A program made the translations under genes and the position numbers. 56,004 bases of DNA, from the IMG/VR virus record IMGVR_UViG_2744054632_000003; one strand, 5' to 3'. This stretch comes from a virus (Duplodnaviria; Heunggongvirae; Uroviricota; Caudoviricetes). Within the stretch, counting starts at the first letter, position 1. Each line of letters starts with the position of its first letter. Below, in pieces: positions 202-34,391 of the stretch. Under the pieces are notes generated by a model. It did no database searches. It worked only from the letters and a program-made list of their open reading frames with translations, and was not told where the DNA came from.

Positions 202-342
202 TTAACCCCTTGTAATTCATCGCCATAATTGATTTAATTCACAAATAAAACTATAACATGGTGAAATTAATGAAAAAAAAACACAGATGATGGGGCTAAA
301 ATTTACACACCACTTACCCTAAAGCTTTATGACTGGTGGGTT

Positions 343-1459: not shown

Positions 1460-2495
1460 TTAAGACGCAAGCGCCGCCTCAATTGCAGATAATCTTTGTC
1501 TTAATTCTGCGTTTTCTTCTTCCAGTGCTGTTATCCTGTCGTCTGACTCTCTGGCTACCTGAACAAGCAAGCCAGTAACACCAGAATAATCTACTGTGTA
1601 ATAACGTTCACCTTCTTCACCTTCCGATCCGCTTGCACCGTCCTGATATTTCATTGCGGAACCTACAACTTCTGGGATTGCTTCCAGAGCTTCCTGTGCA
1701 ATGACACCAGCATAGGGGATACCGTTTTCTTTAAGCGTGTATGTATAGCCGTTCATTTTACGGATGCGGTCGGTTGCATTATCGATCACCTGAATGTTGT
1801 CTTTCAGATCCCGGTCGGAATGCTGGTTAAATGTGGTGGCATGACATGCACCATTAACGCTTAACATATAGGTGTTATCGGTATTTTTCTGCGCATAGAA
1901 CATATAAGCGCCACCATCAACACCGACTTCATAAACAACAGGACGGCTGGAGTTGCCCCACAATTGAGCAGTAACACCAGCATAAGCGGTTCCCTGTGTG
2001 TTTAATGTCATGGTTGACCCATGATTGGCATATTTGATCTGTAATGTGTCGGTGTAATCAAATTTAATAAGCGCGTTACTTCCACGCTTGCTGTATGACA
2101 TAAGGCAGTTACCCATTTTGAGGTATCCGCTGTCACCGGGAAAAATCATCGTACCGCCATAAAGGTTGGTAGAGTCCCAGCAAATGTTTGTCCCGTTATC
2201 GTTCAGGTTAAGGCGCGCCATTGCGTTACCTGGACTGTCTATCCATTTTTTGAGGTATAGTTCGCAATACGCATCCTCAACACCTGCCGTCCTGTGAGTT
2301 GAGCGGAGTTTTCTCCCAAATATAGCTCCGCTAGTTGGCAATACCTGCTGATACCATGAAGCAGACCAGTCACCAACGATTTCATCTTTGCTGTCTACAT
2401 ATAATTTTGTTGCGTAGCTCCTTGATCGTTTTTTAATTTGCTAACGTCGGATTTTAGCGTTTTGATGTCATCAGGAATTACTGTCGATGTAGCCA
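1460..2495 (-). pseudogene. tail fibre/spike distal protein with C-terminal intramolecular chaperone (peptidase S74-like) domain; apparent frameshift near 2395-2400
   Basis: C-terminus GYTYTLKENGIPYAGVIAQEALEAIPEVV...YYTVDYSGVTGLLVQVARE matches the endosialidase-type chaperone domain; a 33-codon ORF (MATSTVIPDDIKTLKSDVSKLKNDQGATQQNYM) from ATG at 2495 ends in TAG while the 293-aa frame is open just upstream of it; one missing base in an A/T run would join them. Confidence 0.55.
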
Positions 2496-2787: not shown

Positions 2788-5168
2788 TAGATTGACTCCC
2801 CCACCTGAGCATCAGTCAATGCCTTGTGCCATATTCTAAAATTCCTGACATGACCAAATAAATGACGTAACCCGGCTGTAGTCTGGCCTCCAATACGGAT
2901 AATTGCGGTGTTCTGAATACAGGACCATGTGGTTTTTGTTTCGCTGGATATATGCCCGTTACTTACTGAGCACGTAGACTGCTCTGACTTTACACGCATC
3001 CCCATAACCATTTTTTCAAGCGATGCGTTTTCGTTTACCCGTCTGTTAGCTCCTCCAATATCGCAATAAGGAAATCCGTCGTAATCTGTTGAACGACCGA
3101 AGCCAAGAATAATAGCCGCTCCGGTTTGATGACCGCCGGTATCAAAAACACGTGGCGCTGCATTTGGCGTTTTATACCAGTTCTTATGTACCTCACAAAG
3201 AACCGTAAAAGGAAGATTATAAAGATTATTCTTAATTGGAACTGTAACTATATCGCTTGCGCGGGTCGCCGCCGTCGCTCCTGATATAATAAAAGATGAT
3301 ACACAAGGCCCATCTTCTACTTGTGGGGTGGCCAGATAAATATAGTCACCAGATACGGTTGCCCCGCTCTGCTTAGGAGAATACTGTATCTGAGAGCCTA
3401 TTTTTAACTCCCCATCAATTGCCTGAATTGTTGCCTCTGCAAAAATCCATCCGGTAGCTTCGTCCTTTCTGACTCTCGCTGTAATTCTTGAGGCAGCACC
3501 GCCTGTCATATTAATTTCAAGCGTTTGTGTATCAATATACGCATCACCAAGAAAAGTTGTTGTGCTACCGTCATATTTATCAAACCGGATACGCAACCTT
3601 ACCTGCAGTTCTGTTTTAAAACGACATGAGGTTGTCACGTGTTTATTATCGCCTGAGACATCAACTGACTTTGTTGCAGCAATTGATGCCATATTAATGG
3701 CTGAGGTTTGCCCAATCAGAGAATCGTTGCAGACAAACTTTCCATAGGTAAAACCAAAATTATCCGTCCCTGTTTCGGGCACATCCATATTTGATGATCG
3801 CCCCCAACTTGCAGGGCTTTCCGAATTGAGCATGTAGTTTGTTCTTTGCCCCTCAATAAGCAGGCCATCACGTTCAAATCGTGGCTCGTCAATGGCAGCC
3901 TCTGTCAGCACACCAGATTTGTTAATATAGGTTGCTTTCGATGCACGTTTAAACTTAACAATCTTGTCGCCAGGCATCGTTATTTCATCGTCACCAATAA
4001 CAATTTTTTTATATGATGGCGAAAAGCCCGTAATCATATCCAGCGAATCGTTAAATGGTATCCACACATCAGGCAGCGGCTGTAAGACATATTTATACGG
4101 CTCTGCTGCCTGACTTGCATACTCTCTGGCTGCGTCTTCACTTGCTTTAGCTGCTGTCTGGCTTGCTGCCGATGCTTTCGCCGAGTTCGCCGCTGCAGTC
4201 TCGCTTGTCTTTGCATTGGTTTCACTGGTTTTTGCTGCTTTTTGACTGTTGGCTGATGCAGTGGCAGAAGCAGCCGCCGCGCTTGCAGAACCAGCTGCAG
4301 CACTCTCGCTTTGGGCTGCTGCATCCTGACTGTTTTTCGCCGCAGTTTCGCTGGCTTTGGCATTCGTTTCGCTGGTCTTCGCTGCCGTCTGGCTGGACTT
4401 TGCGTTAGTTTCACTCGTCTTCGCAGCTTTCTGGCTGTTAGCCGCAGCAGTTGCTGATCCAGCTGCTGAAGTCGCAGAACCGGCTGCCGCGCTCTCGATT
4501 TGGGCTGCTGCAACCTGGCTGTTTTTTGCCGCAGTTTCACTGGCTTTGGCATTCGTTTCGCTGGTTTTCGCTGCCGTCTGGCTGGACTTTGCGTTGGTTT
4601 CGCTCGTCTTTGCGGCTGTCTCGCTATTTTTCGCGTTGGTTTCTGATTTTTTGGCTGCTGTCGCGGAGTTTGCCGATGCAGTCTTTGAGGTCGCTGCCGC
4701 CTGTGCACTATTAGCTGCATTCGTTTCTGAGGTTTTCGCCGCGTTCTTCGATGATGCCGCTGCAGTTTCGGATTTCTTTGCCGCCGCTGCGCTCTGAGAG
4801 GCGGCTTCAGCGTTGCGTGCCGCTTCTTCCACCATTTCCTCAAAACGACGCAATGCCTCCGGCATGACATCATCTTCCGTCATGGCACCGAGAAAATCAT
4901 TCAGCGTACCTGGTCTGGAGCCTTCATAGACGGTAATGGTCCCGGCATGTGAAGGCGGAAAACCTTCAACCAGCAGGGTGACGCTGTACTGGCCATACTC
5001 AACATCCATGCTGTAACGTCCGGCTTCATCCGGATTTTCAGAAGCCACCGTGTTCACCAGTACCGTGGTGCTGTTACGCTTTGCCTTCAGTTGAATAGTG
5101 CAGTTCTGTATTGGTTTTCCCGCACCATCTTTCAGCACACCTGAGATTTTTACTGCTGCCATATCCAC
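2787..5168 (-). CDS. stf: side tail fibre protein Stf with Ala/Ser/Thr-rich repeat shaft and LamG-like C-terminal domain
   Basis: N-terminus AVKISGVLKDGAGKPIQNCTIQLKAKRNSTT...GRYSMDVEYGQYSV matches lambda Stf; repeats AAKTSETNAKSSQT; C-terminus NFRIWHKALTDAQV resembles lectin/LamG domain ends. Confidence 0.85.
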   Translation of the reverse strand: MDMAAVKISGVLKDGAGKPIQNCTIQLKAKRNSTTVLVNTVASENPDEAGRYSMDVEYGQYSVTLLVEGFPPSHAGTITVYEGSRPGTLNDFLGAMTEDDVMPEALRRFEEMVEEAARNAEAASQSAAAAKKSETAAASSKNAAKTSETNAANSAQAAATSKTASANSATAAKKSETNAKNSETAAKTSETNAKSSQTAAKTSETNAKASETAAKNSQVAAAQIESAAAGSATSAAGSATAAANSQKAAKTSETNAKSSQTAAKTSETNAKASETAAKNSQDAAAQSESAAAGSASAAAASATASANSQKAAKTSETNAKTSETAAANSAKASAASQTAAKASEDAAREYASQAAEPYKYVLQPLPDVWIPFNDSLDMITGFSPSYKKIVIGDDEITMPGDKIVKFKRASKATYINKSGVLTEAAIDEPRFERDGLLIEGQRTNYMLNSESPASWGRSSNMDVPETGTDNFGFTYGKFVCNDSLIGQTSAINMASIAATKSVDVSGDNKHVTTSCRFKTELQVRLRIRFDKYDGSTTTFLGDAYIDTQTLEINMTGGAASRITARVRKDEATGWIFAEATIQAIDGELKIGSQIQYSPKQSGATVSGDYIYLATPQVEDGPCVSSFIISGATAATRASDIVTVPIKNNLYNLPFTVLCEVHKNWYKTPNAAPRVFDTGGHQTGAAIILGFGRSTDYDGFPYCDIGGANRRVNENASLEKMVMGMRVKSEQSTCSVSNGHISSETKTTWSCIQNTAIIRIGGQTTAGLRHLFGHVRNFRIWHKALTDAQVGESI
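4140..4800. repeat. imperfect tandem direct repeats (~190 bp unit) inside stf coding sequence
   Basis: Blocks around 4310-4420 and 4500-4615 are near-identical; encode the repeated TSETNAK motif. Confidence 0.6.
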
Positions 5169-11335: not shown

Positions 11336-11664
11336 CAGTTCACCACCTGTTTAAACTCTGCGCTGAACTCAACACGCAACATACTGACCTGCGACGACCA
11401 TTTTGCGCAGGTCACCTTTATCTGCCTGTAACCATAAGGCGGCGTCCACAGAAAGGCCTTCCAGCCCCCGTGCTCAGCCAGAAACGACTCCAGCGCCGTG
11501 GCCTCCTCACGGGAGACAGACAGCGTCACGCTGTACGTTTTCAGGTCAGCGTTCAGCCCGGCAGGCGCACGCTGGGAATAGCCATCACCAAAGCGCACCT
11601 CCCTGACGGAAGGAGCCGATGTCACATCCATACCGGGTTTCACTTTCCAGCGGAAGGTCTTCAT
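11335..11664 (-). CDS. M: tail tip protein M
   Basis: MKTFRWKVKPGMDVTSAPSVREVRFGDGYSQRAP matches lambda M. Confidence 0.9.
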   Translation of the reverse strand: MKTFRWKVKPGMDVTSAPSVREVRFGDGYSQRAPAGLNADLKTYSVTLSVSREEATALESFLAEHGGWKAFLWTPPYGYRQIKVTCAKWSSQVSMLRVEFSAEFKQVVN

Positions 11665-14221
11665 CGTCCACCTCCGGAGAACAGGCCACCATCACGCATC
11701 TGTGTCTGAATTTCATCACGGGCACCCTTGCGGGCCATGTCATACACCGCCTTCAGAGCGGCCGGACCTATCTGCCCGTTCGTGCCGTCGTTGTTAATCA
11801 CCACATGGTTATTCTGCTCAAACGTCCCGGACGCCTGCGACCGGCTGTCTGCCATGCTGCCCGGTGTACCGACATAACCGCCGGTGGCATAGCCGCGCAT
11901 CAGCCGGTAAAGATTCCCCACGCCAATCCGGCTGGTTGCCTCCTTCGTGAAGACAAACTCACCACGGTGAACAATCCCCGCTGGCTCATATTTGCCGCCG
12001 GTTCCCGTAAATCCTCCGGTTGCAAAATGGAATTTCGCCGCAGCGGCCTGAATGGCTGTACCGCCTGACGCGGATGCGCCGCCACCAACAGCCCCGCCAA
12101 TGGCGCTGCCGATACTCCCGACAATCCCCACCATTGCCTGCTTAAGCAGAATTTCTGTCATCATGGACAGCACGGAACGGGTGAAGCTGCGCCAGTTCTG
12201 CTCACTGCCGGTCAGCATCGCCGCCATATTCTGTGCAATACCATCAAAGGTCTGCGTGGCTGCACTTTTTACCTGCGACATACTGTCCGTGGCGCTCTCT
12301 TCCCACTCACTCCAGCCGGACTTCAGGCCTGCCATCCAGTTCCCGCGAAGCTGGTCTTCAGCCGCCCAGGTCTTTTTCTGCTCTGACATGACGTTATTCA
12401 GCGCCAGCGGATTATCGCCATACTGTTCCTTCAGGCGCTGTTCCGTGGCTTCCCGTTCTGCCTGCCGGTCAGTCAGCCCCCGGCTTTTCGCATCAATGGC
12501 GGCCCGTTTTGCCCGTTGCTGCTGTGCGAATTTATCCGCCTGCTGCGCCAGCGCGTTCAGGCGCTCCTGATACGTAACCTTGTCGCCAAGCGCAGCCAGC
12601 TGGCGTTTGTACTCCAGCGTCTCATCTTTATGCGCCAGCAGGGATTTCTCCTGTGCAGACAGCTGGCGACGTTGCGCCGCCTCCTCCAGTACCGCGAACT
12701 GACTCTCCGCCTTCCACAAATCCCGGCGCTGCTGGCTGATTTTCTCATTTGCTCCGGCATGCTTCTCCAGCGTCCGGAGTTCTGCCTGAAGCGTCAGCAG
12801 AGCAGCATGAGCACTGTCTTCCTGACGATCGCCCGCAGACACCTTCACGCCGGACTGTTTCGGCTTTTTCAGCGTCGCTTCATAATCCTTTTTCGCCGCC
12901 GCCATCAGCGTGTTGTAATCCGCCTGCAGGATTTTCCCGTCTTTCAGTGCCTTGTTCAGTTCTTCCTGACGGGCGGTATATTTCTCCAGCGGCGTCTGCA
13001 GCCGTTCGTAAGCCTTCTGCGCCTCTTCGGTATATTTCAGCCGTGACGCTTCGGTATCGCTCTGCTGCTGCGCATTTTTGTCCTGTTGAGTCTGCTGCTC
13101 AGCCTTCTTTCGGGCGGCTTCAAGCGCAAGACGGGCCTTTTCACGGTCATCCCAGTAACGCGCCCGCGCTTCATCGTTAACAAAATAATCATCCTTGCGC
13201 AGATTCCAGATGTCGTCTGCTTTCTTAAACGCAGCCTCTGCCTTAATCAGCATCTCCTGCGCGGTATCAGGACGACCAATATCCAGCACCGCATCCCACA
13301 TGGATTTGAATGCCCGCGCAGTCCTGTCTGCCCAGGTCTCCAGCGTGCCCATGTTCTCTTTCAGGCGGCGGGTCTGGTCATCAAACCCTTTCGTTGCGGC
13401 CTCGTTCGCCGCCTGCAATGCCCCGGCTTCATCGCCGGAACGCTGCAACTGAGCAACATACGCAATCTGCTCCGCCGTCACGTTATGGAACTGGCGTGCC
13501 ATCGCCGTCAGCCCCGACGTCGGTCTGTGGTCAGCTTCCCGAAGGCTTCAGCGACCTTGTCCACCTCCACGCTGGATGCAGAGGAGAAACGCGCCACACT
13601 CTGGCTGATGGACGCAATCTGAGCCTCACCGCTTACCCCCGCCTTAACCAGTGCGCTGAGTGACTCGCTGGTCTGGTCAAACGTCAGCCCTGCCGCCTGC
13701 CCGGCTCTGGACAGGACCAGCATGCGATCTGCCGTCAGCCCCGACTGATTGCCGGAAAGGACCAGCGTTTTGTTGAAATCGGACAGGGTTGAGTTGCCCT
13801 GATACCAGGCATACGCCAGCGCACCGGTCGCCACCGCCAGCGAGGTGGCCCCGACCATCGGCAGGGTGAGCGCACCGGCAAGCCCCCTGAACATGGGGAT
13901 CATCCCGCCGAAGGAGTCCTTCACCTGACCACCCTGTTGCAGCAGGATCAGCCACGGACTTTGCCCGCCTGCAAGCTGCGTGGCCACGTCAGTGAACTGC
14001 GCAGGCAGCATACGCATGGCAGCTTTATACTGCCCAACGGAAATCCCCGCTTTCTGTGCAGCCAGCGCCTGTCGGCTCAGCGACTGTTCAACGACTGCCG
14101 CTGTTTTTTTCGCATCACTTTCCGTACCGGAAAAATGACGCCTGACTCTGGCCATCTGCTCGTCAAATCTGGCCGCATCCAGACTCAAATCAACGACCAG
14201 ATCGCCTACCGGTTCAGCCAT
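11661..14221 (-). pseudogene. H: tape measure protein H, split into two ORFs by a frameshift near 13503-13510
   Basis: 13508..14221 matches H N-terminus (MAEPVGDLVVDLSLDAARFDEQ...KLTTD) then reads RRRG-stop; 11661..13502 continues H (MARQFHNV...); junction gaccgacgtcgg versus lambda gacccgacgtcgg (recalled). Confidence 0.8.
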
Positions 14222-14654
14222 ACCGGACTCCTCCTGCGATCCCTTCTGATACTGTCATCAGCATTACGTCATCCTCCGTCATGTCCGCCACATCCGTGGA
14301 AGTAGGGATAACTTCATTCCCGTCCGGGCCAAAGCGGACACCTCCGGCAAGCCCTGCCGCTTTCTGCATCAGCACATCATCTTCAGGCTCTTCGTCAGCC
14401 TCGCGCCGGTTCAGCAGACTGAAATCCAGCGGATGCATATCCGGATCGCTGAAAAACAGGCTGAGCACGGTGTACGTCAGCCCGGAAAAGTGCATATCCA
14501 GCAGAACATCATGAAAATAATGGGTACTGTAAAAGCGGTGCCAGTCGGCATACTCCGTGGATGACATCCCGGCAAGCATGGCACGCCAGTCGGGTCGCCC
14601 CATCTCACGCGCCAGTTTCAGGGCAAAACTCAGCTCACCGTCGAACGCTTTCCC
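14214..14654 (-). CDS. T: T segment of the G-T tail assembly chaperone (-1 frame extension of G)
   Basis: ORF in -1 frame relative to G, beginning at the slippery heptamer near the end of G. Confidence 0.7.
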   Translation of the reverse strand, partial: GKAFDGELSFALKLAREMGRPDWRAMLAGMSSTEYADWHRFYSTHYFHDVLLDMHFSGLTYTVLSLFFSDPDMHPLDFSLLNRREADEEPEDDVLMQKAAGLAGGVRFGPDGNEVIPTSTDVADMTEDDVMLMTVSEGIAGGVRYG

Positions 14655-15052
14655 GCAGAAACAGGCTCTGCAGGCCCGGAGTCCTCTGCCTGTTCAGGGG
14701 CATCATTCACCACAAACTCATACATACCGGACAGCCGGTACACCACGTTTTCAGCATGAGAAATTGCCTCCGTGGGCCAGGTGGTAAGCACTTCCTGCTC
14801 AATCTGTTTAACGGCTTCATTCATGGAAGGCAGCTTTGTCTTCTGCGGATGGTTATGCCACAGGGACATCGCCACCACAAAAGCACCGGTTCTGATGGCG
14901 TCTTCCACAGTAAACTTCCGGTTGCTGTCTGACTCCGCCTGTTCTGCCTGCCGTTTCATCAGGGCGAGATGCTCAATACGCTGCAGGGCTGACAGTTCAG
15001 AAAGCGTGACGGTCACACCGTTATGTTCAAATGATTCGGTTTTCAGGAACAT
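14630..15052 (-). CDS. G: tail assembly chaperone G
   Basis: MFLKTESFEHNGVTVTLSELSALQRIEHLALMKRQAEQ matches lambda G; 140 aa. Confidence 0.9.
   Translation of the reverse strand: MFLKTESFEHNGVTVTLSELSALQRIEHLALMKRQAEQAESDSNRKFTVEDAIRTGAFVVAMSLWHNHPQKTKLPSMNEAVKQIEQEVLTTWPTEAISHAENVVYRLSGMYEFVVNDAPEQAEDSGPAEPVSAGKRSTVS
14648..14654 (-). promoter_or_regulatory. programmed -1 ribosomal frameshift slippery site GGGAAAG
   Basis: Minus-strand G GGA AAG in the G frame at codons 134-135 (plus strand CTTTCCC). Confidence 0.7.
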
Positions 15053-18379: not shown

Positions 18380-18520
18380 CTCATGCTTCGGCTACATGAG
18401 TCAAATATGAAAGGATCTGAATGATTTTTAATGAAATAAATGGCTCTCTCTATCAAAATACAGCTAAAAAGCAATACACGTAGCAATACAGCGCTTCGCA
18501 AAGGTATGTCACTATATCTA

Positions 18521-19486
18521 CTAGTGCCAACCAGAATACGAATATCTTTGCTTTGCTTCTTCTGGGCTCATACCCACTAGTAAAGATACTAATTCAAAGT
18601 CAGGTTGTGGAATTGGAATCAATGCAGCCAAATATGCTGGCTTATTGAGAACAATTGTTGATAATCTAGCTTTATTCACCTTAGATAACTCAATATTACT
18701 TTCCGCTACCTTCGGGAATTCCATAATAAATGAATCAATTTCCCTTATGAGATAATCGATCAACGCCACTATACTTTCTGTCAAATCAATATATTTTGAC
18801 AACTCACTAGCATCAATTTCTTTCTTTATTTCATCCAATTTAATTTCAAACACTGGCTTGTCTTTACTGGCAATATTAGACAAACGTTTCTTTAAATCTG
18901 AATCAAGCTGATTCCTGACAATTAAACTTTTCAAAACAAAATTATAATTAAACAAAAAAGCATCAATTCGAGCAATATTCCTCCATGAGTTTCCAATTTC
19001 TTCATCTGACGGCATAATAAGTTCATGTTTTAGTATCTTGTACTTAATAAAAAAAACAAACCTCTCAAATAGAGTTTTATTAGCTGTGGGTATCTTTTTT
19101 ATAAATGAAAGACGGCTAATATCGAAATTCACCTCCCCGGCGTTAAATAAAAGTTCATTTATTGCCAGCGCTCTAAATATTGGATTTCTAGATCTCAAAC
19201 CAATATAACTACTTTTAATTGCCACAAGTGTATTTATCATCTGAAAAGAAACCATCATAAGCGTATTAGCAGAATTAAATTTCTCCGTTTCTATTTTAAT
19301 CTTCTCCTGCCTATTATTGATACAATAAGCAGTTAAGCCTCCCATAAGCGCCGATAAAAAAGATAATGCAATAGGGAATACATAATCTTTTGTATAATCA
19401 ACATCTGCTTTCAACATTAGTATTGCTTTAGCAATCAAAACTGCATCAGGGGTCATGTTAGAGCCGTCATTAAAAATTAAACACAA
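18521..19486 (-). CDS. AT-rich membrane-associated protein of unknown function (island cargo; candidate defence gene)
   Basis: Ile/Lys/Asn-rich 321-aa ORF with N-terminal hydrophobic segments; low GC versus flanks; sits at island end next to attL. Confidence 0.5.
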   Translation of the reverse strand: MCLIFNDGSNMTPDAVLIAKAILMLKADVDYTKDYVFPIALSFLSALMGGLTAYCINNRQEKIKIETEKFNSANTLMMVSFQMINTLVAIKSSYIGLRSRNPIFRALAINELLFNAGEVNFDISRLSFIKKIPTANKTLFERFVFFIKYKILKHELIMPSDEEIGNSWRNIARIDAFLFNYNFVLKSLIVRNQLDSDLKKRLSNIASKDKPVFEIKLDEIKKEIDASELSKYIDLTESIVALIDYLIREIDSFIMEFPKVAESNIELSKVNKARLSTIVLNKPAYLAALIPIPQPDFELVSLLVGMSPEEAKQRYSYSGWH

Positions 19487-20149
19487 TACCCATAAAATAT
19501 AACAGCTTATTGTTTAGAAAAGCAATATCATACACTCTATGATAAGCGTAATATCTTACAGGCATGGTGTGTTACGACACTTAATTAAACGTAATTTGCT
19601 AAAATTTTACACACAGAATCACACCAGGCTCTAACTCTCCTTTCATTACAATTGTAAGCATACAATTATCCTACCAGAACTTTATTGTTAAGCTCTCCCT
19701 TTTGAGCCCATCCCATAATGAATTGACGAAAGAACCGTATCTGTGGAGTAATCATTTCTGCGCGGTTCTATGTCGAAGACAAAATATGGTATGCGCATCT
19801 AGTCAGAGGGAAAGCAATTTTTCAGGGAAATATCATCTCTACATGGTTAAAACAACCAGAAGAAGTTATCAAGCAAGTTGGGTATGAAGATTTTCCTATA
19901 ATAGTAACGAAACGGGTTTCACCTGAGCGGTTGTGTTCGATCCGCCACAATACGCATAGGATGCCCTGTAATCCGTATTCTGCTTACTCAACAGCTTACC
20001 AGCAGGACTCGTAAGGCTGTTGCGATAGTGCAGAAGTAGGCCACGACCATAAAGTGAAGCCAGTGGCGCGTTATCGACTACTTTAGTGTAGAGCCTGATT
20101 TCAACGCAAGCGTGAGAGTTTTTTCTGGCGATAGGCCGTGACAAACAGC

Positions 20150-20330
20150 AACAAAATCAGAGAAAGGAAACGGCAGAGGCCAAAAAGCCCGTTTTCAGCG
20201 CCAGTCATTTCCTTTCTTTTCAGGGGGGATTTTAAATAAAAACATAAAGTTACGGCGAAGAAGAACGGAAACGCCTTAAACCGGAAAATTTCCATAAATA
20301 GAGAAAAACTGCGCGCCTGACGCCCCGTAA
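20150..20330. other. island cos site: cosB-like region and divergent cosN
   Basis: About 85 percent identical and colinear with prophage cos region 34950-35130; at the cosN position island has GCCTGACGCCCC where the prophage has AGGTCGCCGCCC. Confidence 0.65.
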
Positions 20331-20381
20331 CGTTCTGGATCGCCGGAAAGGACCCGCCAGCCAGAGCGGGCCCTAATTTCA

Positions 20382-20765
20382 TCAACCAATCAGCTTATAG
20401 CGACCATCCCGTGCATTGCGGCGTACACGCTCAATCTTGAGGCATAGCGCCGCATCTGGCTTTTTTGGGACAGGTACGCGGCAATATTCAGAAGCGCGAG
20501 GAATATTATTTATCCAGTCGATCACTTCACTTAAATACCAGGCCTTACGCCCTTCCGTAACCTGCACACGCTCCGGGAACTCTCCACTAGCCTCAAGGTT
20601 TAGCAGTGTACGACGACTCAGGGTTGTAATTTCCATCACCTGATTCATATCAACAAGGCGCTCGCTTAAACACATTTTGTCAGCGATAGCTTTTAATTCC
20701 TCTACAGCTGGATTCGGGTACATCATTTCGGCAATTGGCTTAAGGTCATTGTAATCATTCTGCAT
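20382..20765 (-). CDS. AlpA-like HTH protein adjacent to island cos (candidate packaging-redirection or regulatory protein)
   Basis: LSRRTLLNLEASGEFPERVQVTEGRKAWYLSEVIDWI resembles the AlpA/excisionase HTH fold; gene ends immediately at the island cos. Confidence 0.5.
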   Translation of the reverse strand: MQNDYNDLKPIAEMMYPNPAVEELKAIADKMCLSERLVDMNQVMEITTLSRRTLLNLEASGEFPERVQVTEGRKAWYLSEVIDWINNIPRASEYCRVPVPKKPDAALCLKIERVRRNARDGRYKLIG

Positions 20766-20776
20766 TGTATCCCCCT

Positions 20777-21118
20777 TTACACACGAGCCAGCGGCTGAAC
20801 AGAAATACCTGAGCCAACAAACGCTGCAACCTTTACTGACAGTTCTTTAACAGACTCAGGCCAGTTCAGAGCATCAACATTTAAGACACCTGTCTTATAG
20901 ACCTGAGCCTGTGTTTTTTTCGCGGTGTCGATTTGTACAGCGGAAACATAAACCGCTTTACCTACGCTCGAACCATCCCATACCACCAGTGCACCTGTTG
21001 CATCTTCCTGCATCAGTGGCGTAAATGCAGGAATTACCCCTTTATTAGCTGAAAATATCCCCAGCGTAGTCACCAGTGCTTCAGTGCCAGCCATGAGTTC
21101 AGTGTAATGAGTAGCCAT
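20777..21118 (-). CDS. head decoration protein D homologue (island-encoded)
   Basis: TPLMQEDATGALVVWDGSSVGKAVYVSAVQ...VYKTGVLNVDALNWPES aligns with lambda [32 protein letters not shown]...[17 protein letters not shown]. Confidence 0.7.
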   Translation of the reverse strand: MATHYTELMAGTEALVTTLGIFSANKGVIPAFTPLMQEDATGALVVWDGSSVGKAVYVSAVQIDTAKKTQAQVYKTGVLNVDALNWPESVKELSVKVAAFVGSGISVQPLARV

Positions 21119-21127
21119 TGCTCCCCC

Positions 21128-22168
21128 TTAGCCAATGCGAACGGTAACAAAACGATTGATGCGGGCCGGTATTGGCTGTGGTGCTGAATGTGTCTGCACA
21201 TATTCAATAGCCGGATCACCAGGCACAATATAGTTTTTCGGTGCAAGTTCGGCTTTAGTCAGCCCCATTCGGATTAGCTCCGGATCCTGAATACCGCCAT
21301 AGGCGACAATCCCCTGAAGAGCCGTATTGCCAAGCACCATCAAATCAGGATCAAGGAAATGTTTTTCAGTTCCGTCCTCGTCGGTATAACGCCCGCTGTA
21401 AACAACAATCGCAACATCGCCCATATATCCTTTAAAACTCACCGAATCACCAAGGTCTTTAAGGGCCGTTTCCAGTTCGGAATTAGAACCACGACGGGTA
21501 TCCAGAGCCTCTTTTATCGCTCTGAATGAACGGTATTTCTTCCATACATTACCGCCCATAATGATGATATTAGTGACGCCCTCACTAAATTCTGCGTAGC
21601 TCTCAATATCATCATTTGGATCAAAAGTTTCTTTATCCTTACCTGACCACTCAGTACCGCCAGACTGAGTGATGATATTTTGTGGTTTAATATTCCAGTC
21701 CAGCTCATAACGTTCAATACCATCGCCCTCAATGATATTTTTCCCCGTTGTGATTGCCTGAACGGCAAGCCATTCAATACGTGCACGAATAGCTTTAGCT
21801 TGATTTACAATCGCCTGTTTAACTTTAATATTACGCGCCCCAAAAGCATTGTATTGCTCAGGTGATACACCAGCAGGGCGCACAGCTAACTTATTTGGAT
21901 CAATGCTGCTTTTCGGCTTCATATAGCCTGGACGAATTGTTTTTGATTCGTACCCTTCGTCACGTGAAACTTTACTACCCACCATAGGAGAACAAAACGC
22001 TGCAATTGGGATATTTGGATCGTCGATTGTATCAAGAATAATATCGCGCGATCCAAACATTACCGAGCGAGTAAAAAACAAACTGGTAAACAACGCATTT
22101 AGTTGTTTTTGTACATCTACAGCATTAACCACCTGTACAAGCTGGGTAGGCGAATATAAATCAACCAT
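21128..22168 (-). CDS. major capsid protein E homologue (island-encoded, divergent)
   Basis: ITQSGGTEWSGKDKETFDPNDDIESYAEF...RSFRAIKEALDTRRGSNSELETALKDLG...VAIVVYSG colinear with lambda E; start taken at MVDLYSPTQLVQ with AAGAGG 6 nt upstream. Confidence 0.8.
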   Translation of the reverse strand: MVDLYSPTQLVQVVNAVDVQKQLNALFTSLFFTRSVMFGSRDIILDTIDDPNIPIAAFCSPMVGSKVSRDEGYESKTIRPGYMKPKSSIDPNKLAVRPAGVSPEQYNAFGARNIKVKQAIVNQAKAIRARIEWLAVQAITTGKNIIEGDGIERYELDWNIKPQNIITQSGGTEWSGKDKETFDPNDDIESYAEFSEGVTNIIIMGGNVWKKYRSFRAIKEALDTRRGSNSELETALKDLGDSVSFKGYMGDVAIVVYSGRYTDEDGTEKHFLDPDLMVLGNTALQGIVAYGGIQDPELIRMGLTKAELAPKNYIVPGDPAIEYVQTHSAPQPIPARINRFVTVRIG

Positions 22169-22385
22169 ACGCATCCTCTTTGCATTCATTAAAAATAATT
22201 GTGGATATATGCTATCACCGATATTTGTCATGCGAACACATGCAACCGAGTGCAATGTTGTATAAAGTTTTGGGGTGACAACTTCAGTGCGAACAATTAG
22301 TGTTAATATATTCACTCCCTTTGGTCGGGATTTATGTAGCATGCCGGAAAATTTATTTTTTCCGGCCTTTTTTTATTGGCAATAT

Positions 22386-22835
22386 TTAAAATGGGATATC
22401 ATCTCCCCATTGCTCATTATCTCCCACTGGTGGCTGGCTTCCTTGCTGATCTGCCTGTTGTTTTGCTCTGTTCAGTGCGTCAGTAGCCTGCCCCTGTTGG
22501 CCTTTTTTGCCGCCCGGTCGCACCGATCGCGCACTGATTACGCTGTCTGCGATAACCTGCCAGCCCTGCCGCGTTTCGCCGTTCTGTCCAGTCCACTGGC
22601 TCATCTGCATGTTACCCGCCACGCTCAGGAGTTCGCATTTGTGATGCTTTGCCAGCGCGTCGGCTTGTCTGCCAAACGCCAGGACAGATAACCACATCGT
22701 CGCCTGACCGTCATCCGACTGACTGCAAGGCAGTGATACCGCCATACGCGCCAGCGTCATGGGGGTGCCCTTGCTGGTCTGTTTTGTCTGCGGGTCGTCC
22801 ACCAACCGCCCGTAAACTGATATTTGCGCCGTCAT
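22386..22835 (-). CDS. single-stranded DNA-binding protein-like
   Basis: OB-fold-like N-terminus and Gly/Gln-rich tail ending in acidic DDIPF, the SSB C-terminal signature. Confidence 0.65.
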   Translation of the reverse strand: MTAQISVYGRLVDDPQTKQTSKGTPMTLARMAVSLPCSQSDDGQATMWLSVLAFGRQADALAKHHKCELLSVAGNMQMSQWTGQNGETRQGWQVIADSVISARSVRPGGKKGQQGQATDALNRAKQQADQQGSQPPVGDNEQWGDDIPF

Positions 22836-23077
22836 GCTGCCTGCTCTCCGGACTTAATATTGATTGTTGTCACTTCCTCCGCTTCAGCAATCTCCCGTTC
22901 GGTCAGAGTGGCAAAGTTTGCAGCCGCCGTTGTCATGAATGCGCTAATCAGTTCGGGATGTGCTTTCGCGTATCCTTCCCCGGCGTTGCGGTCGATGATT
23001 TTTATCGACACCCTTAACCAGTGTTCAGTCAAATCAAGGGCGTGCGATTGTGATTTTTTTGTGTGCTTCGCTGTCAT
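22832..23077 (-). CDS. hypothetical protein (81 aa)
   Basis: ORF overlapping start of SSB-like gene by 4 nt; no recognised family. Confidence 0.35.
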   Translation of the reverse strand: MTAKHTKKSQSHALDLTEHWLRVSIKIIDRNAGEGYAKAHPELISAFMTTAAANFATLTEREIAEAEEVTTINIKSGEQAA

Positions 23078-23128
23078 AGGCTTTATCTCACAGCAGTAAA
23101 TTAAAATTTTTGCGTTTTAACCCTTCAC

Positions 23129-23351
23129 CTGTTCACCTTTTGATATTTTCTCTTTTAATTCATAATGTTAATGGGTGAACAGTTTCACAAAAACTATTCA
23201 CCAACTGTTCACCACTGTTCACCCTTGAAGCTCAATAAACAATCAAAAAGGTGAACAGTGAATAGTTTGGTGAACAGTTCATAAATAACTGTTCACCCTA
23301 TAATACACTGATATAAAAGATATTTATGACAGGGTGAACAGTGGTGAACAG
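23129..23351. repeat. iteron cluster, probable island replication origin
   Basis: At least 10 copies of GGTGAACAG or its complement CTGTTCACC in both orientations in an AT-rich stretch just downstream of the primase-helicase gene. Confidence 0.7.
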
Positions 23352-23364
23352 TTATTCCATAAGT

Positions 23365-25185
23365 TTAATTTTTGCTATCGTCATTAGTGACCGATACACA
23401 TGATGGCATCCAGTCCTCTGATTCCTCCGTCAGTGTCACGTTTGAACGCAAACCGTGCTTCGTTTTCCGTTTCATATACTCCCTGCCATATTCCGCCATT
23501 GCCCCCGGCATATCTTTACCGAAGCGCGTCAGTGTTACAGGTTTACCAAACCCATGTGCCCTCATATAAGCCAGATAGGCATGATAGAGATACCTGCGTG
23601 GGCTGAATGGCACAATTTCAGCATTACCCACTAATAGGCCATCACACATTACCGATGCCATGAGATAGCCGCAGAAGTCCACCAGCGAATCCCCCTCTCG
23701 CTTTATCGCCAGTGCTTCTTCAGATTTCTGCTGCTCATATAACAGGCGTCTGGCTTCGTCCTGATCAGCAAACCGTGTAAGCAGATGACGAATCACTACC
23801 GCCAGCTCACCTTCTATTTTTTCCGCCAGCATCGAATCGCGTTCGTTCTCCGGTACAACTTCCGAAAAATTGAATATCACCCGACGACGTGAGATCCCCC
23901 CGCTGCGGTCACTGAATGACATGGCGTTATTGTTAACCGCCAGTACTACTGCCGGAATACGCGTTGAATAGGGGGCTTTGTGTTTCGGGTCAATTGCCAC
24001 CTTGTCACCGCCTGTAATGGCCTTAATCCCTGCCCCATCACCAGCGTAGCGGGTCATATCCGGCATGATAATCAGCGAAAAGCCAACCACTAACGCACGT
24101 TCCCTTGCATCTTCCAGCGCCTTCATGCTTGCTGATACTGTATTAGCCTTACCCGCCAGCATGGTGCAAATCTCCGCCATCACACTTTTACCACTTCCCC
24201 CCGGCCCTGTTACCTCAATGAATAACTGCCAGTCGTACCGGTTCGCCAGCACCATGAATAATGCCGCCAGTACGCGATCTGCCTTGCGGTCATTCTCAGC
24301 CACCGAACGGCGCAACCACTTCCAGAAATTCGGCGCATGTGTTGCCAGCGTTTCCCCCTCTGCTGGTGGGCTGAAAGGTAATTCACTGGCAATTAACAAC
24401 CAGTCGTTTTTGTTATGCTCCCGAAAATTACCAGTTCTGGTATCAAATACCCCGTTACTGAATCCAATCAGGTTACGGGCAGTATTCCCCATTACAGGCA
24501 AACTTAACTTCATGGTATCTACCGCCGATTTAATGGCGTTCTGCGAATAGCTGATCTCCGCATCAATGAAAATCTGCGCCATAGCACGCTGTAACTCTTT
24601 ATCCTGAACCGGCTCCCATACAACGCCGTTGTAATGATGAACGGTGTCAGAGTCGGCATTGATTGCCAGTTCGCCGCCGTAATGTGCAAGGAGAACTTCA
24701 CCGCGCTGGCTGGCCCCCATCTGATTCAACGCCAAAGATGAAGCACGCTCGTCATTTTTGCGCTCTGCCTTCTTCACTGGCAGTTCAATCACCAGACTTT
24801 CCCCATGCTCCGCTTCAGCTTTTAGGCCGACAAGGCGCGGAGTCCAGTCTTCAGGCTCTCGATCAACAAAGCTACGGTAACAACGTGCTTCCTTTACGCC
24901 TGCAATAGCAAGTAATGTCGCAACCTTCGTCAGACTTTTCTCTGCAATCTTTCCGGCACGATAAACACGCACATAATGACGGCCTTCATCGATAATTTGC
25001 ATATCATCCAGGTTTTCCAGTTGTTCCGTACCCAGAATGACTGGTGGTGTATCATCTGCTGCAATATGCTTACCTGCCCATTCATTCCATTCTTTTGCAT
25101 GGCTCCAGGCATCACTGCCAGCAAAAATGATGACTTCCGTCATTTTGTCGCGCGGTTGGTATTTTAAGTTCGGAGCACGTTTCAT
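23365..25185 (-). CDS. primase-helicase (P4 alpha / D5-like SF3 helicase family)
   Basis: Walker A GPGGSGKS, followed by conserved SF3 helicase-like region; GGAGGT 5 nt upstream of ATG at 25185. Confidence 0.8.
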   Translation of the reverse strand: MKRAPNLKYQPRDKMTEVIIFAGSDAWSHAKEWNEWAGKHIAADDTPPVILGTEQLENLDDMQIIDEGRHYVRVYRAGKIAEKSLTKVATLLAIAGVKEARCYRSFVDREPEDWTPRLVGLKAEAEHGESLVIELPVKKAERKNDERASSLALNQMGASQRGEVLLAHYGGELAINADSDTVHHYNGVVWEPVQDKELQRAMAQIFIDAEISYSQNAIKSAVDTMKLSLPVMGNTARNLIGFSNGVFDTRTGNFREHNKNDWLLIASELPFSPPAEGETLATHAPNFWKWLRRSVAENDRKADRVLAALFMVLANRYDWQLFIEVTGPGGSGKSVMAEICTMLAGKANTVSASMKALEDARERALVVGFSLIIMPDMTRYAGDGAGIKAITGGDKVAIDPKHKAPYSTRIPAVVLAVNNNAMSFSDRSGGISRRRVIFNFSEVVPENERDSMLAEKIEGELAVVIRHLLTRFADQDEARRLLYEQQKSEEALAIKREGDSLVDFCGYLMASVMCDGLLVGNAEIVPFSPRRYLYHAYLAYMRAHGFGKPVTLTRFGKDMPGAMAEYGREYMKRKTKHGLRSNVTLTEESEDWMPSCVSVTNDDSKN

Positions 25186-25469
25186 TTGTTACCTCCGGCA
25201 ACTAACATTGCCCGAATTTTACGGATATAGCCTGCGGCACGCCTCTGATTATCTGTCTTGCAATTTTTTACCAGAATGAAATCTCTTTCGAACTGCTGAC
25301 GCGGCATAACACATTCAAAATCATAACCATCACGCAAATAAGAGACACGACGATCATCAACCGAAATAATCTTTACCCGATAGCCATAGCTGTCTTTGAA
25401 AATATCCCCAAGGCTGATTTTTGAATGAGTTTGACCGCTGGCAATAAAGCCAGAAAATTTATTTTTCAT
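25182..25469 (-). CDS. hypothetical protein (95 aa)
   Basis: ORF translationally coupled to primase gene; no recognised family. Confidence 0.4.
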   Translation of the reverse strand: MKNKFSGFIASGQTHSKISLGDIFKDSYGYRVKIISVDDRRVSYLRDGYDFECVMPRQQFERDFILVKNCKTDNQRRAAGYIRKIRAMLVAGGNK

Positions 25470-25472
25470 TTT

Positions 25473-25697
25473 TTATTCTCCGGTATAGCTCTGGTCGTGT
25501 ATTTTTATAGCTTCATCCAGCTCTTTGATGACAGGATCAAGTAACGTAATTAACGCTCCAGCTAAATTAGCATCCCGTTCATCGTGTTCCGCATTTGTTG
25601 TCCCATCAAGCCAGGTTGATAAGATTTCTCGCATATTTTTGCCACAAACGAGCGCGTTTTCAGCATGTGTCAGCACTTTAAAATAAAGATCATTCAT
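25473..25697 (-). CDS. hypothetical protein (74 aa)
   Basis: ORF in same operon; no recognised family. Confidence 0.35.
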   Translation of the reverse strand: MNDLYFKVLTHAENALVCGKNMREILSTWLDGTTNAEHDERDANLAGALITLLDPVIKELDEAIKIHDQSYTGE

Positions 25698-26055
25698 GGC
25701 ACACCTCCTGACGAATACGGGCGGCGAATATCATCACGCAGCCAGTTGGGGATTGCTGGCGGGCTTCCTGTTCGCTGGTGGCCTCGATGGTAATCACGCG
25801 CGGTTGTGCCGTACTCAGGGCGATAAAACGCCAGATGAAATTGTTTTCACATTTCTGAATAAACAGCGTGTTTTCTTCCCGCCCTTTCCAGAAAGCCGCA
25901 GTATAGCCCATCTCCTTAACCATCTTGCGCGCATCAACCAGCGTGTCAGCGGCTACATGTACCGTAGTTGCTCCATCTGCTATGCGATCGCGATGTAGCG
26001 CCAGAAAGATGTATATAAATTTAGGGTGAGTTTGGGTATGCTGTGTTCCAGCCAT
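25690..26055 (-). CDS. hypothetical protein (121 aa)
   Basis: First gene of leftward island operon; no recognised family. Confidence 0.35.
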   Translation of the reverse strand: MAGTQHTQTHPKFIYIFLALHRDRIADGATTVHVAADTLVDARKMVKEMGYTAAFWKGREENTLFIQKCENNFIWRFIALSTAQPRVITIEATSEQEARQQSPTGCVMIFAARIRQEVCHE

Positions 26056-26085
26056 AGTCGTTACTCCAGTTAACGGTTTGTGGTT

Positions 26086-26190
26086 AGACGCCTAGGTGTG
26101 TTGCGAGCACCCTAGGGCGTTGTTTATAGGTATAACATCATGTTAATGTGTGTACCTATTCAACACTGATGCTAAGCAATAGGTACACAC
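26086..26190. promoter_or_regulatory. divergent promoter/operator region with two palindromes
   Basis: Perfect 15-bp inverted repeat ATGTGTGTACCTATT / AATAGGTACACACAT and imperfect palindrome CGCCTAGG...CCTAGGGCG between divergent operons. Confidence 0.5.
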
Positions 26191-26385
26191 ATGTCAACTA
26201 CAATTCAAAGAGATAAGCAGCCAAAAGGAGCCGGCAAAGCCCCTGCGTTTCAGATCCGAATCAATCCTGAACTCAAAGAACAGATGGCTGAATCAGCAGC
26301 TCAGGAAGGAATGAGCTTGGCCAATTGGATTAAAGAATTAGTTCGTGCTGAGCTTCGCCGTAAAGGTATAGAACCTAAAGGCTAA
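26191..26385 (+). CDS. ribbon-helix-helix (Arc/CopG-like) DNA-binding protein
   Basis: 64 aa; FQIRINPELKEQMAESAAQEGMSLANWIKELVRAEL fits the RHH beta-alpha-alpha pattern. Confidence 0.55.
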   Translation: MSTTIQRDKQPKGAGKAPAFQIRINPELKEQMAESAAQEGMSLANWIKELVRAELRRKGIEPKG

Positions 26386-26417
26386 TTTTTTTAATTTTTA
26401 TTGAATAGGATATTCAA

Positions 26418-27101
26418 ATGACTCCAACTCCTGACGATGCTGTATTCACTGCATCAAACATTATAAATTTCTTCGTGGCACTCGGGACTTGCACAGCAGT
26501 GTTAGTTGCATTAATTGCTAAAAAGCAATCATCTTTTGAATCAACATTTTCTCTCATGTTATCTCAACATAACAATGCTCTAAATGATCTTAGAAAAAAA
26601 TCAAATTACTCAGAGTTAATTAATAAAATGATGAATGGATTGGTTTCTTTAAAAGACACTAATACACTGATGCACAATCATGATGCTGTTTTTGGAAGCT
26701 ACTTCAGAATATTATATCATCTATTGAAGTTCATTGATGAAAATGCTGGATACCATCCCTTTGATCTAGATCGTAAAAAAACCTATACAAGCCTTGTCCG
26801 TGCACATCTAGATAATGAAATAACGTATTTACTTGCAATAAACTGTGCACATGCTAACAGTGAAAATCAATATCATTTTTATAAAACATTGATTGAGCGC
26901 TATGCCATGTTAGAACATTTAATCTTGGATAAATCAACGCTATTGGACTATACCCCTCCAGATTTAAATGAATATCAAAAAGATTTGCGCGTAGCAACAA
27001 TAGTGGTTACCGATGATATAAAAACTATTTTTAACGAGATTGCAACAGTATATTATAAGAGCGCATTTGGAAAAAACCCTGATTTAAAAAATTTCCTGTA
27101 A
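26418..27101 (+). CDS. AT-rich membrane-anchored protein of unknown function (island cargo; candidate defence gene)
   Basis: N-terminal TM helix IINFFVALGTCTAVLVALIA; AT-rich codons; co-oriented with RHH gene. Confidence 0.45.
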   Translation: MTPTPDDAVFTASNIINFFVALGTCTAVLVALIAKKQSSFESTFSLMLSQHNNALNDLRKKSNYSELINKMMNGLVSLKDTNTLMHNHDAVFGSYFRILYHLLKFIDENAGYHPFDLDRKKTYTSLVRAHLDNEITYLLAINCAHANSENQYHFYKTLIERYAMLEHLILDKSTLLDYTPPDLNEYQKDLRVATIVVTDDIKTIFNEIATVYYKSAFGKNPDLKNFL

Positions 27102-27127
27102 GATATAGGGAGGAATACCTCCCTAAC

Positions 27128-27358
27128 TTACCATTCACCTCTTATCCAAGCTTGAATCTCAGAGAGTCTATAAGCCACCGCCGTAGATCCGATTTTGATT
27201 CGCTTGGGGAATTTCCCCTCCTTTTCAAGCTTCCAGCGTGTGCTGTTCGCAAGAGTGGTTAGCTCCCGACATTCTTTCTCACGGATCATTCGGTCAATGT
27301 TAGGAATGTACTCCAGACCCTTTTTATCAACAATTGCCATTTTTTTCATGTTAACCAA
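27128..27358 (-). CDS. alpA: AlpA family transcriptional regulator / excisionase-like
   Basis: Small HTH protein immediately downstream of integrase; LEYIPNIDRMIREKECRELTTLANSTRWKLEKEGKFP. Confidence 0.7.
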   Translation of the reverse strand: MVNMKKMAIVDKKGLEYIPNIDRMIREKECRELTTLANSTRWKLEKEGKFPKRIKIGSTAVAYRLSEIQAWIRGEW

Positions 27359-28586
27359 CCTTTTGTTTGAGGATTGTCACTTTTGAATCAGCACCTGCGA
27401 TGCTATTGAGATATGTAGTCCAGAGTTCCAGAGCATCCAGTTTTTTAGCCATAAACTTACTCCGGTTGTAAACACCTGCCACGCCAGGTAGCGCATGGCC
27501 TAACAGTTGTTCTACTACATAAAATTCAACACCGAGATCACTTAGATGAGTAGATAGCGTTCTTCTAAGGTCGTGTAGTGACCATTGTTTTTCATGGCCC
27601 AAACGTTTACCGATTTTCCCCCCAATCTTGCTTACGCTTTCTCTAATTCGCAGACTTCCCAGCACATAACCAGTATGTTTTGTCTCTTCGTGAACATCCG
27701 TTACCCACTGTCGTAGAATTTCAGGTACTGGTCTGACGATTTCAACACCAGTTTTTGAGTGATCTTTTGGTACAGTCCAAACCCAACTTTCGAGATCCCA
27801 TTCGCTCCATTCTGATAATCGGGCTTCACTCATTCGACATCCAAATACTGTACAAAGCACAAACATTTTTCGCGTGTATTCAGACATTAGTTTTAAATCA
27901 GGCTCGACAAAAATTGCCTTCCAGAGCTGGCCGAGTTCGGCTTCATCCAGAACCCGATCCCGCTTACCTGCAATCTGCCCCACATCACTCATGCGCAAAT
28001 CCTTTAAAGCATCACACGTCGCGTACTGGCGTACCCGACAAAAACGAAGAGCTAATTTAGTGTCAGAAAAAACATACGCCGCCATAACTGGTGCATTACG
28101 TTTAATTCGGTCAAAACAGTCCAGCCATTCATATAGGTGAGTGTCATTTACGGGCAAATGACCGATATAGGGAAAGATATGCTTTCGAAATCTGCCAAGC
28201 GTTACAGCATGAGTTTTACGACGCACCTTACAGTAATTTTCATACCAGTAATTTAGTGCATCCTCCACTGTGACCGGCTTTAAGCGTTCTTCAGCCTGAA
28301 TCTTAATCTGGATACGCGGATCACGTTTGTCAGCCAACCAACCACGGCACTCGTCGCGCTTTTCCCTTGCCTGTTTGAGTGACATATCAGGATATTTACC
28401 CAACGTTAGCCAGACCGGAGCAGCCCGGCCACCTGCTAACCTGTAGAAGAAAACAAAGCTCACAGCCCCTTTAGTACTCACACGAATAGAAAGCCCCTTT
28501 CCATCAGCAATGGTGATCTGCTTTTCTCTGGGTTTCCCCAGATATCCTTTAAGCGCTTTGTCGCTCAGTTTGTTCTCGCCAGCCAT
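27351..28586 (-). CDS. int: tyrosine integrase (P4-type)
   Basis: Conserved HDLRRT and LLGH motifs of tyrosine recombinases; start taken at MAGENKL; adjacent to attR. Confidence 0.85.
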   Translation of the reverse strand: MAGENKLSDKALKGYLGKPREKQITIADGKGLSIRVSTKGAVSFVFFYRLAGGRAAPVWLTLGKYPDMSLKQAREKRDECRGWLADKRDPRIQIKIQAEERLKPVTVEDALNYWYENYCKVRRKTHAVTLGRFRKHIFPYIGHLPVNDTHLYEWLDCFDRIKRNAPVMAAYVFSDTKLALRFCRVRQYATCDALKDLRMSDVGQIAGKRDRVLDEAELGQLWKAIFVEPDLKLMSEYTRKMFVLCTVFGCRMSEARLSEWSEWDLESWVWTVPKDHSKTGVEIVRPVPEILRQWVTDVHEETKHTGYVLGSLRIRESVSKIGGKIGKRLGHEKQWSLHDLRRTLSTHLSDLGVEFYVVEQLLGHALPGVAGVYNRSKFMAKKLDALELWTTYLNSIAGADSKVTILKQKVG

Positions 28587-28748
28587 TTTTAGCCCCAAAA
28601 AGCAATACAAGCTGCAATACAGAGATGATTGCAACACACAGATAACGAGGAAAATTCAGTGAAAGCGCCAGATAAACTTATTCTTTATTATCAAAAGATT
28701 AAGTGTAAAAACCAGCAACTACACGAAAGCCTCAGAAAGCCATGCTAA

Positions 28749-28994
28749 GTGCTTCGGCTTGACATATCCCGGCGTAAATTCAGAGGTGGAGCCGCCACGG
28801 GAGCGGATAACCTCACCGGAAACAATCGGCGAAACGTACAGCGCCATGTTTACCAGCCCCGGAATTTGTGAGAGATAGACTTTCTCCGTGGTGAAGGGAT
28901 AGCTCTCACGGAAAAAGAGACGCAGAAACAGCGGATCAAACTTAAATTTCTGCTCATTTGCCGCCAGCAGCTGGGCGGTTGTGTACATCGACAT
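28749..28994 (-). pseudogene. E: major capsid protein E, N-terminal 82 codons, interrupted by island insertion
   Basis: MSMYTTAQLLAANEQKFKFDPLFLRLFFRESYPFTTEKVYLSQIPGLVNMALYVSPIVSGEVIRSRGGSTSEFTPGYVKPKH then reads LAWLSEAFV-stop into island DNA. Confidence 0.9.

Positions 28995-30691: not shown

Positions 30692-30711
<20 letters not shown>
29392..30711 (-). CDS. C: capsid assembly protease C (S49 family), Nu3 scaffold nested in frame
   Basis: TAELRNLPHIASMAFNEPLMLEPAYARVFFCALAGQ matches lambda C; likely GTG start. Confidence 0.85.

Positions 30712-34391
<3,680 letters not shown>

Follow-up and report, generated by a model that had tools for sequence, protein, structure and literature searches.

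The closest described counterpart of the locus studied here is the lambda gene for gpH, the tape-measure protein, an 853-aa product that carries the Pfam domains TMP_2 and Tape_meas_lam_C. Directly upstream of it in the tail module lies another sequence that is read in two frames, G/GT, which encodes the tape-measure chaperones by means of a programmed -1 frameshift. Long homopolymer runs are a classic problem for long-read platforms. The systematic errors of nanopore sequencing are mostly homopolymer indels that cause gene frameshifts, and a Medaka-polished assembly of lambda itself was left with 7 indels in 48.5 kb (PMC8011154). In this report, we describe an H gene that is split into two open reading frames by the loss of one base. 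The missing base is very probably a consensus error that recurs in this particular sequence context and that stems from a platform prone to homopolymer errors.

The window (the whole stretch of 56,004 nt that was analyzed) represents a lambdoid prophage of full length, which lies on the minus strand and occupies the argU/intD (DLP12) site. The order of genes around H is that of lambda (V-G-T-H-M-L-K-I-J), with H between G/T and M, and the H region has 99.0% nucleotide identity to lambda J02459 (10463-13155) over 2,692 nt. The first-pass annotation had held that two ORFs together cover lambda H colinearly, and this was borne out. The 237-aa ORF matches TMP_2 (E=3.8e-61, profile positions 2-184 of 208), and the 613-aa ORF matches Tape_meas_lam_C (E=1.4e-21). 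Domains and gene order are thus shared with lambda; unlike the lambda gene, H in the window has its frame split by one missing C, a state absent from finished relatives. The coordinates of these and other features are collected in Table 1.

Table 1. Features of the window discussed in the text. Coordinates are positions in the window.
Feature	Position	Strand	Remarks
H, N-terminal fragment	13508..14221	-	237 aa; 233 native codons, then out-of-frame RRRG and TGA
H, C-terminal fragment	11661..13502	-	613 aa; internal Met241 as start codon
H lesion (indel)	13522..13523	-	CC, against CCC in lambda and all finished relatives; GGG->GG on the plus strand
Premature TGA in H, from the frameshift	13508..13510	-	Sequence and ORF list
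G/GT slippery heptamer	14648..14654	-	GGGAAAG, intact; 1.1 kb upstream of the H break
G ORF	14630..15052		ORF list
T-frame ORF	14214..14603		ORF list
Indel, methyltransferase gene (SAM-dependent)	273..281	+	A8->A9, codons 2-4; nine relatives have A8, one A7
Indel, Peptidase_S74 tail-fibre gene	2418..2420	-	TT->T (~2419), frameshift; TT in 10/10 relatives
Indel, intergenic, inside the embedded satellite	26091..26092	.	CCC->CC; 24AR0376 has CCC
Indel, portal gene B	31540..31542	-	Plus-strand AAAA in relatives, AAA in the window
Helper-embedded PICI	18384..28759	-	10.4 kb; in capsid gene E, co-oriented with E and the late genes

At the break, the minus strand of the window reads AAG CTG ACC ACA GAC CGA CGT CGG GGC TGA CGGCG ATG GCA CGC CAG, whereas lambda and all close relatives have GAC CCG ACG TCG GGG CTG ACG GCG ATG. 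The CCC run of the latter comprises the last base of the Asp233 codon GAC and the first two of the Pro234 codon CCG, and the frame is broken after Asp233. The two surviving C residues lie at 13523-13522, as a plus-strand GG. The upstream ORF accordingly ends in KLTTDRRRG and the stop at 13510..13508, the RRRG terminus being directly legible in the sequence and the ORF list, as had been noted; the downstream ORF opens with the ATG at 13502..13500 and has the N-terminus MARQFHNV. The loss of a single C had also been recognized in the first-pass annotation, which assigned it to 13495-13515. The TGA and the ATG at which reading restarts fall within that interval, whereas the deletion itself lies 7 nt outside it.

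As written, H is without a single uninterrupted frame of ~853 codons, and the re-insertion of one C restores it. The repaired product has 853 aa, is identical to WP_001567091.1 (E. coli 2016C-3878 and 24AR0376), and shares all but 7 of its residues with lambda H. Over the H region (2,701 nt), the missing C is the only difference between the window and E. coli 2016C-3878. Among seven related places that cover H, the product is 853 aa long in six and 1,018 aa long in the seventh. Taken at face value, the sequence of the window would specify a 237-aa N-terminal fragment, possibly a 613-aa C-terminal fragment, and tails that could not be built.

Could the two fragments nevertheless be functional? 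An in-frame ATG lies 5 nt past the stop, and a G-rich stretch lies upstream. Coupled re-initiation could therefore supply two fragments that assemble, or a -1 slip (tRNA-Gly moving from GGC to GGG at CGG GGC UGA) could rescue full-length H; judged from the sequence, such a slip at G GGG C would give an 853-aa protein with PTS->RRR as its sole change relative to native H. The site GAC CGA CGT CGG GGC TGA, however, lacks a slippery heptamer of the X XXY YYZ form; none of the finished relatives conserves the arrangement, and the break falls inside the TMP_2 domain, away from the domain boundary. We consider a functional split of this kind extremely improbable, and on the same evidence a frameshift at this point, whether programmed or rescuing, was rejected so far as sequence alone can show. 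The comparison with the neighboring G/GT site, which is intact in the window, is instructive: unlike G/GT, the H break lacks a heptamer and conservation, and it is explicable without recoding.

A broader view was provided by comparison of the entire window with its nearest finished genome, that of E. coli 24AR0376. The two align end-to-end and are set apart by 3 substitutions and by 5 homopolymer indels of one base each. Comparison with closely related prophages had been suggested in the first-pass annotation, and at least ten other copies of the same prophage served to polarize these differences. All five indel states proved to be private to the window. Of the three substitutions, 24AR0376 alone carries two, which leaves a synonymous change at 32741 as the only one private to the window. 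Thus, four private indels that break genes stand against one private substitution in 56 kb. Further, although the window holds 96 runs of at least 6 nt, all but one of the five indels affect runs of 2-4 nt.

These figures may be set beside those for mismatch-repair-defective E. coli mutation-accumulation lines, in which each CDS shows ~0.85 indels for 6.02 substitutions and the indels cluster in long runs (PMC8510543). At that ratio, the probability that at least five of six changes would be indels is 1.6e-4. Such an excess of indels over substitutions is unlike E. coli divergence, and the spectrum of the window is error-like. Relative to its nearest finished genome, then, the window shows both changes in run length and an excess of indels; its substitutions do not equal or outnumber its indels, nor does it show other signs of decay.

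These results bear on the alternative that the frameshift is genuine and private to the strain, such that H is a true pseudogene, no tails are made, and the prophage is starting to decay. Prophage decay is common, and other finished genomes have H annotated as frameshifted elsewhere in the gene (e.g., FDAARGOS_1296). Moreover, the base is in fact missing from the assembly, and an independent contig, L010 (ERR4605607), is the same over 2.6 kb. A genuine frameshift nonetheless fits poorly with the one private substitution against four gene-breaking indels, at the probability given above, and it fares no better in the collections of finished genomes and raw-run assemblies discussed below. We regard it as unlikely. 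Whether the lesion reflects sequencing error or decay was left undecided in the first-pass annotation; the sequence comparisons assembled here strongly favor error.

A 68-nt query centered on the lesion matched 3,602 finished E. coli records, at 5,064 places. The top-ranked matches were 68/69 with one gap. A perfect full-length match would rank first, and none was there; the CC allele is thus absent from all 3,602 records. A 401-nt query against finished genomes likewise recovered no CC allele. The exact 34-mer at the lesion was not found in the GTDB species representatives, IMG/VR, or the JGI metagenomes, and the exact 237-aa product of the window was not found in the protein collection. The lesion is therefore neither present in high-quality assemblies nor shared by descent, which speaks against a genuine frameshift.

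The picture is different in public raw-run and draft assemblies. There, the identical change from CCC to CC occurs on at least 24 contigs, from at least 13 samples and at least five prophage haplotypes. Three of these contigs (L007, L009, and L010, all from Logan) were retrieved by searching for proteins identical to the 613-aa fragment, and each has the CCC->CC change. The others were reached by constructing the predicted deletion product of the lambda-type H allele and seeking it among 15 billion proteins; this 237-aa product, which ends in TTDRRRG, was found on 21 contigs, and all ten of the contigs that were fetched confirmed the deletion. As controls, comparable 1-nt deletions were placed at five other 3-nt runs in H, and none of their products occurs among the same 15 billion proteins. 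A sixth control deletion, with a product of 178 aa, was uninformative, as this product equals the native H prefix and matched contig-end partial proteins alone.

Over 2.6 kb, lesion included, contig L010 matches the window at 100% identity. This match shows that the deletion is reproducible, though both may go back to one dataset or one strain. L007 and L009 represent a different prophage from that of the window. Compared with the finished genome of PF9285, both have 0 mismatches, with 2 homopolymer indels in L007 and 3 in L009, and the two contigs are mutually discordant at two homopolymer indel sites.

The ten fetched RRRG contigs derive from several different prophages that are 97-99% identical to lambda. 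For this reason, the possibility that they represent lambda control DNA, which would have proved the error directly, was rejected. One of them, L026, was compared over 20.7 kb with the prophage of the much-sequenced strain NC101, from which it differs by 1 mismatch and the H deletion. NC101 and its close relatives, eight finished genomes in all, score equally against this contig, over a span that is one base longer. Five others (L028, L029, L031, L032, and L034) have extra homopolymer-type indels relative to lambda, coinciding with abnormal calls of the portal gene, E, M, or Z. In general, the contigs that bear the deletion have 0-1 substitutions relative to a finished relative, and about half of them have further homopolymer indels that break essential genes. 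The deletion is thus seen repeatedly, in datasets that are independent and haplotypes that are unrelated, and other homopolymer errors accompany it.

A single real deletion allele that had been spread by recombination was also considered as a source of this recurrence. The flanking SNPs vary between backgrounds within 50-200 nt of the H lesion, which implies that the deletions are independent in origin and that recombination is not their source. Each background has its own nearby SNPs and 0-1 mismatches to its own relative, and recombinational spread was rejected on these grounds. For a genuine frameshift, the at least five unrelated haplotypes would necessitate repeated independent events at a 3-nt run.

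Such repeated events are what would be expected if the site were a real mutational hotspot or switch, at which the CCC in the palindrome CCCGACGTCGGG often loses a base in vivo and H is thereby switched off. The at least five independent occurrences at the exact base, with none at the five control 3-nt runs, would accord with this notion. Yet finished genomes come from similar cultures, and the 5,064 places examined in them did not yield a single instance of the allele. In addition, the other homopolymer indels that break essential genes in about half of the carrier contigs point to data quality, and the predicted local DNA structure is unremarkable. Classical slipped-strand phase variation requires runs far longer than 3 nt, and the run in H is much too short for it. 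A hotspot or switch is thus highly improbable. We likewise think it very unlikely that an in-vivo hotspot recurrently abolishes tail formation in many prophages, PICI helpers among them, and is hidden from view by finishing pipelines or the choice of strains. Even jointly, a hotspot and a functional split would carry only a slight probability.

A consensus error remains the preferred explanation. Under it, the H gene would be intact in the real organism, and the C would have been lost because the platform miscounted short mononucleotide runs. That platform was most likely nanopore. The error was perhaps kept in the assembly because lambdoid prophage DNA is repetitive and poorly polishable by short reads. 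The miscall falls at ...AGACCCGACGTCGGGG..., within which the palindrome noted above is perfect and 12 bp long. A strong hairpin was rejected as the cause, given that the predicted DNA fold at the H site has a z-score of about -1.7 to -2, which is unremarkable. None of the Dam (GATC), Dcm (CCWGG), and EcoKI motifs occurs at the H site. Among the lesions of the window, only that at 2419 has a GATC nearby.

The lesions of the window resemble long-read consensus errors in several respects: they are changes in run length, they are in excess over substitutions, the H deletion recurs across datasets, and it is absent from finished genomes. At 5 indels in 56 kb, or ~1 per 11 kb, they are about as dense as the errors left in polished nanopore assemblies (PMC8011154, Homopolish). 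They depart from the classic long-read errors in the length of the runs, which is no more than 2-4 nt in four cases out of five, and the comparison assumes the platform. A further consideration concerns the long, otherwise clean contigs that carry the deletion. L026 (32 kb) and L027 (26 kb) are of this kind, and L030 and L033 are without an extra lesion; the deletion-bearing runs that were counted as clean are SRR27596373, ERR15567896, ERR13669262, and ERR13669514. These four contigs would fit modern high-accuracy long reads. If they are instead products of Illumina sequencing, the deletion would look real there.

The other lesions of the window furnish parallels. That portal gene B carries a frameshift of the same kind had been pointed out in the first-pass annotation, and it does: the loss of one A (Table 1) splits the gene into ORFs of 253 aa (31531..32292) and 274 aa (30692..31516). 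The frameshift in the tail-fibre gene is also present, and it is a homopolymer lesion in a loose sense only, as a TT is reduced to T. The product of the portal deletion was found elsewhere only in the Logan contig L012 (SRR14141815), which comes from another prophage. Within 3.5 kb, this contig shows four additional A-run deletions, together with fragmented gene calls for terminase and W. In an Illumina-era metagenome scaffold that shares the portal C-terminus, the run is an intact TTTT. The portal lesion shows the same pattern as the H lesion.

The biological weight of the H lesion is probably small, as the restoration of one base gives an ordinary, intact lambda-type tape-measure gene. Its main value lies in the documentation of a false-pseudogene hotspot in lambda-type H genes. 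A miscall at ...AGACCCGACGTCGGGG... would lead annotators to call H frameshifted and the prophage defective, and would skew surveys that assess whether prophages are intact or competent as helpers of the embedded PICI. The triage employed here needs no reads and is reusable; it combines the ratio of private indels to private substitutions relative to the nearest finished genome, the reappearance of a change on several haplotypes in raw-run assemblies, and its lack in finished genomes.

The window has one more interrupted gene, that for the capsid protein E. This gene is split by a known helper-embedded PICI, and the split is separate from the H lesion. The element is flanked by a 10-bp direct repeat, TGCTTCGGCT, at 18384-18393 and 28750-28759, of which a relative with an empty site has a single copy. 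It encodes an integrase, a putative AbiC, a D5-type primase, a single-stranded-DNA-binding protein, and homologs of lambda E and D, and it agrees with the published definition of a helper-embedded PICI (PMC10111431). Elements of the 11capE type excise precisely and thereby restore the gene (Barth et al. 2023, PMC10111431). The split in E is thus a reversible insertion and gives no evidence of decay; as a sign of a dead prophage it was rejected, given the precise excision and the 10-bp att core. Neither an Rfam scan nor a tRNA scan gave a hit in the window. The element shares with 11capE the integrase, the D5-type primase, the E-like capsid and D-like decoration genes, the insertion in E with the same orientation as that gene, and the 10-bp identity at its ends (PMC10111431). 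It differs in its helper, which for 11capE is at the icd site and here is the prophage at argU/DLP12, and in the addition of the putative AbiC gene.

At least 24 public contigs from raw-run or draft assemblies carry, in identical form, the single-base deletion that splits the tape-measure gene H (CC for CCC). These contigs derive from at least 13 samples and represent at least five prophage haplotypes. The CC allele was found in none of 3,602 finished E. coli records. The sequence context of the deletion, AGACCCGACGTCGGGG, contains a 12-bp palindrome. We conclude that the shortened C run in this context is most probably a reproducible false-frameshift hotspot.

Besides the H lesion, four single-base homopolymer indels are private to the window, and three of these break ORFs. 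The change in portal B was seen again only in L012, an error-ridden Logan contig from another prophage. Relative to all relatives examined, the window carries a sole private substitution, which is synonymous.

Features of the window and compared loci
Feature	Position	Gene or locus	Remark
A8 to A9	window 273-281	start of SAM-methyltransferase gene
TT to T	window about 2419	Peptidase_S74 tail-fibre gene
CCC to CC	window 26091-26092	intergenic stretch of PICI
AAAA to AAA	window 31540-31542	portal B
Substitution	window 32741	terminase large-subunit gene	synonymous
H CCC to CC	lambda coordinate 11240	L007, L009, L010, L026-L035	raw-run or draft contigs
H "frameshifted"	equivalent to window ~13635	L002 (NZ_CP070066.1, FDAARGOS_1296)	adjoins C5 run
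Gene I "frameshifted"		L037 (NZ_CP132979.1, ARS-C101)
S49 peptidase (protease) "frameshifted"		L025 (NZ_CP028755.1, strain A20)
Slippery heptamer GGGAAAG	window 14648-14654, minus strand	G/GT tape-measure chaperone genes	intact
Satellite	window 18384-28759	inserted in major capsid gene E	10.4 kb; co-oriented with E of the prophage
att repeats of satellite	window 18384-18393 and 28750-28759	both flanks	10-bp repeat TGCTTCGGCT

H is also split, into 229 and 613 aa, in the raw-run locus SRR33648738 (L005). The lesion there is the loss of a G at lambda coordinate 11171, from GGCGCG, a stretch that is no homopolymer. Any frameshift upstream of Met241, the internal codon at which the C-terminal ORF starts, yields the 613-aa ORF call.

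Lambdoid late genes are annotated as "frameshifted" in finished RefSeq genomes too, at other single-base sites. Gene I, so annotated in ARS-C101, is intact in the Logan contig L027. Some of these annotations in finished genomes may be assembly errors as well.

The -1 frameshift of G/GT is a genuine programmed one; its GGGAAAG heptamer lies upstream of the lesion in H, at a distance of 1.1 kb.

The satellite in E encodes an integrase, a putative AbiC, an Icd-like protein, a D5-type primase and a single-stranded-DNA-binding protein (SSB), together with a lambda-E-like capsid and a D-like decoration protein. It fits a published type, the helper-embedded PICI "11capE" (PMC10111431), but differs from that example in that its helper prophage occupies the argU/DLP12 site rather than icd.
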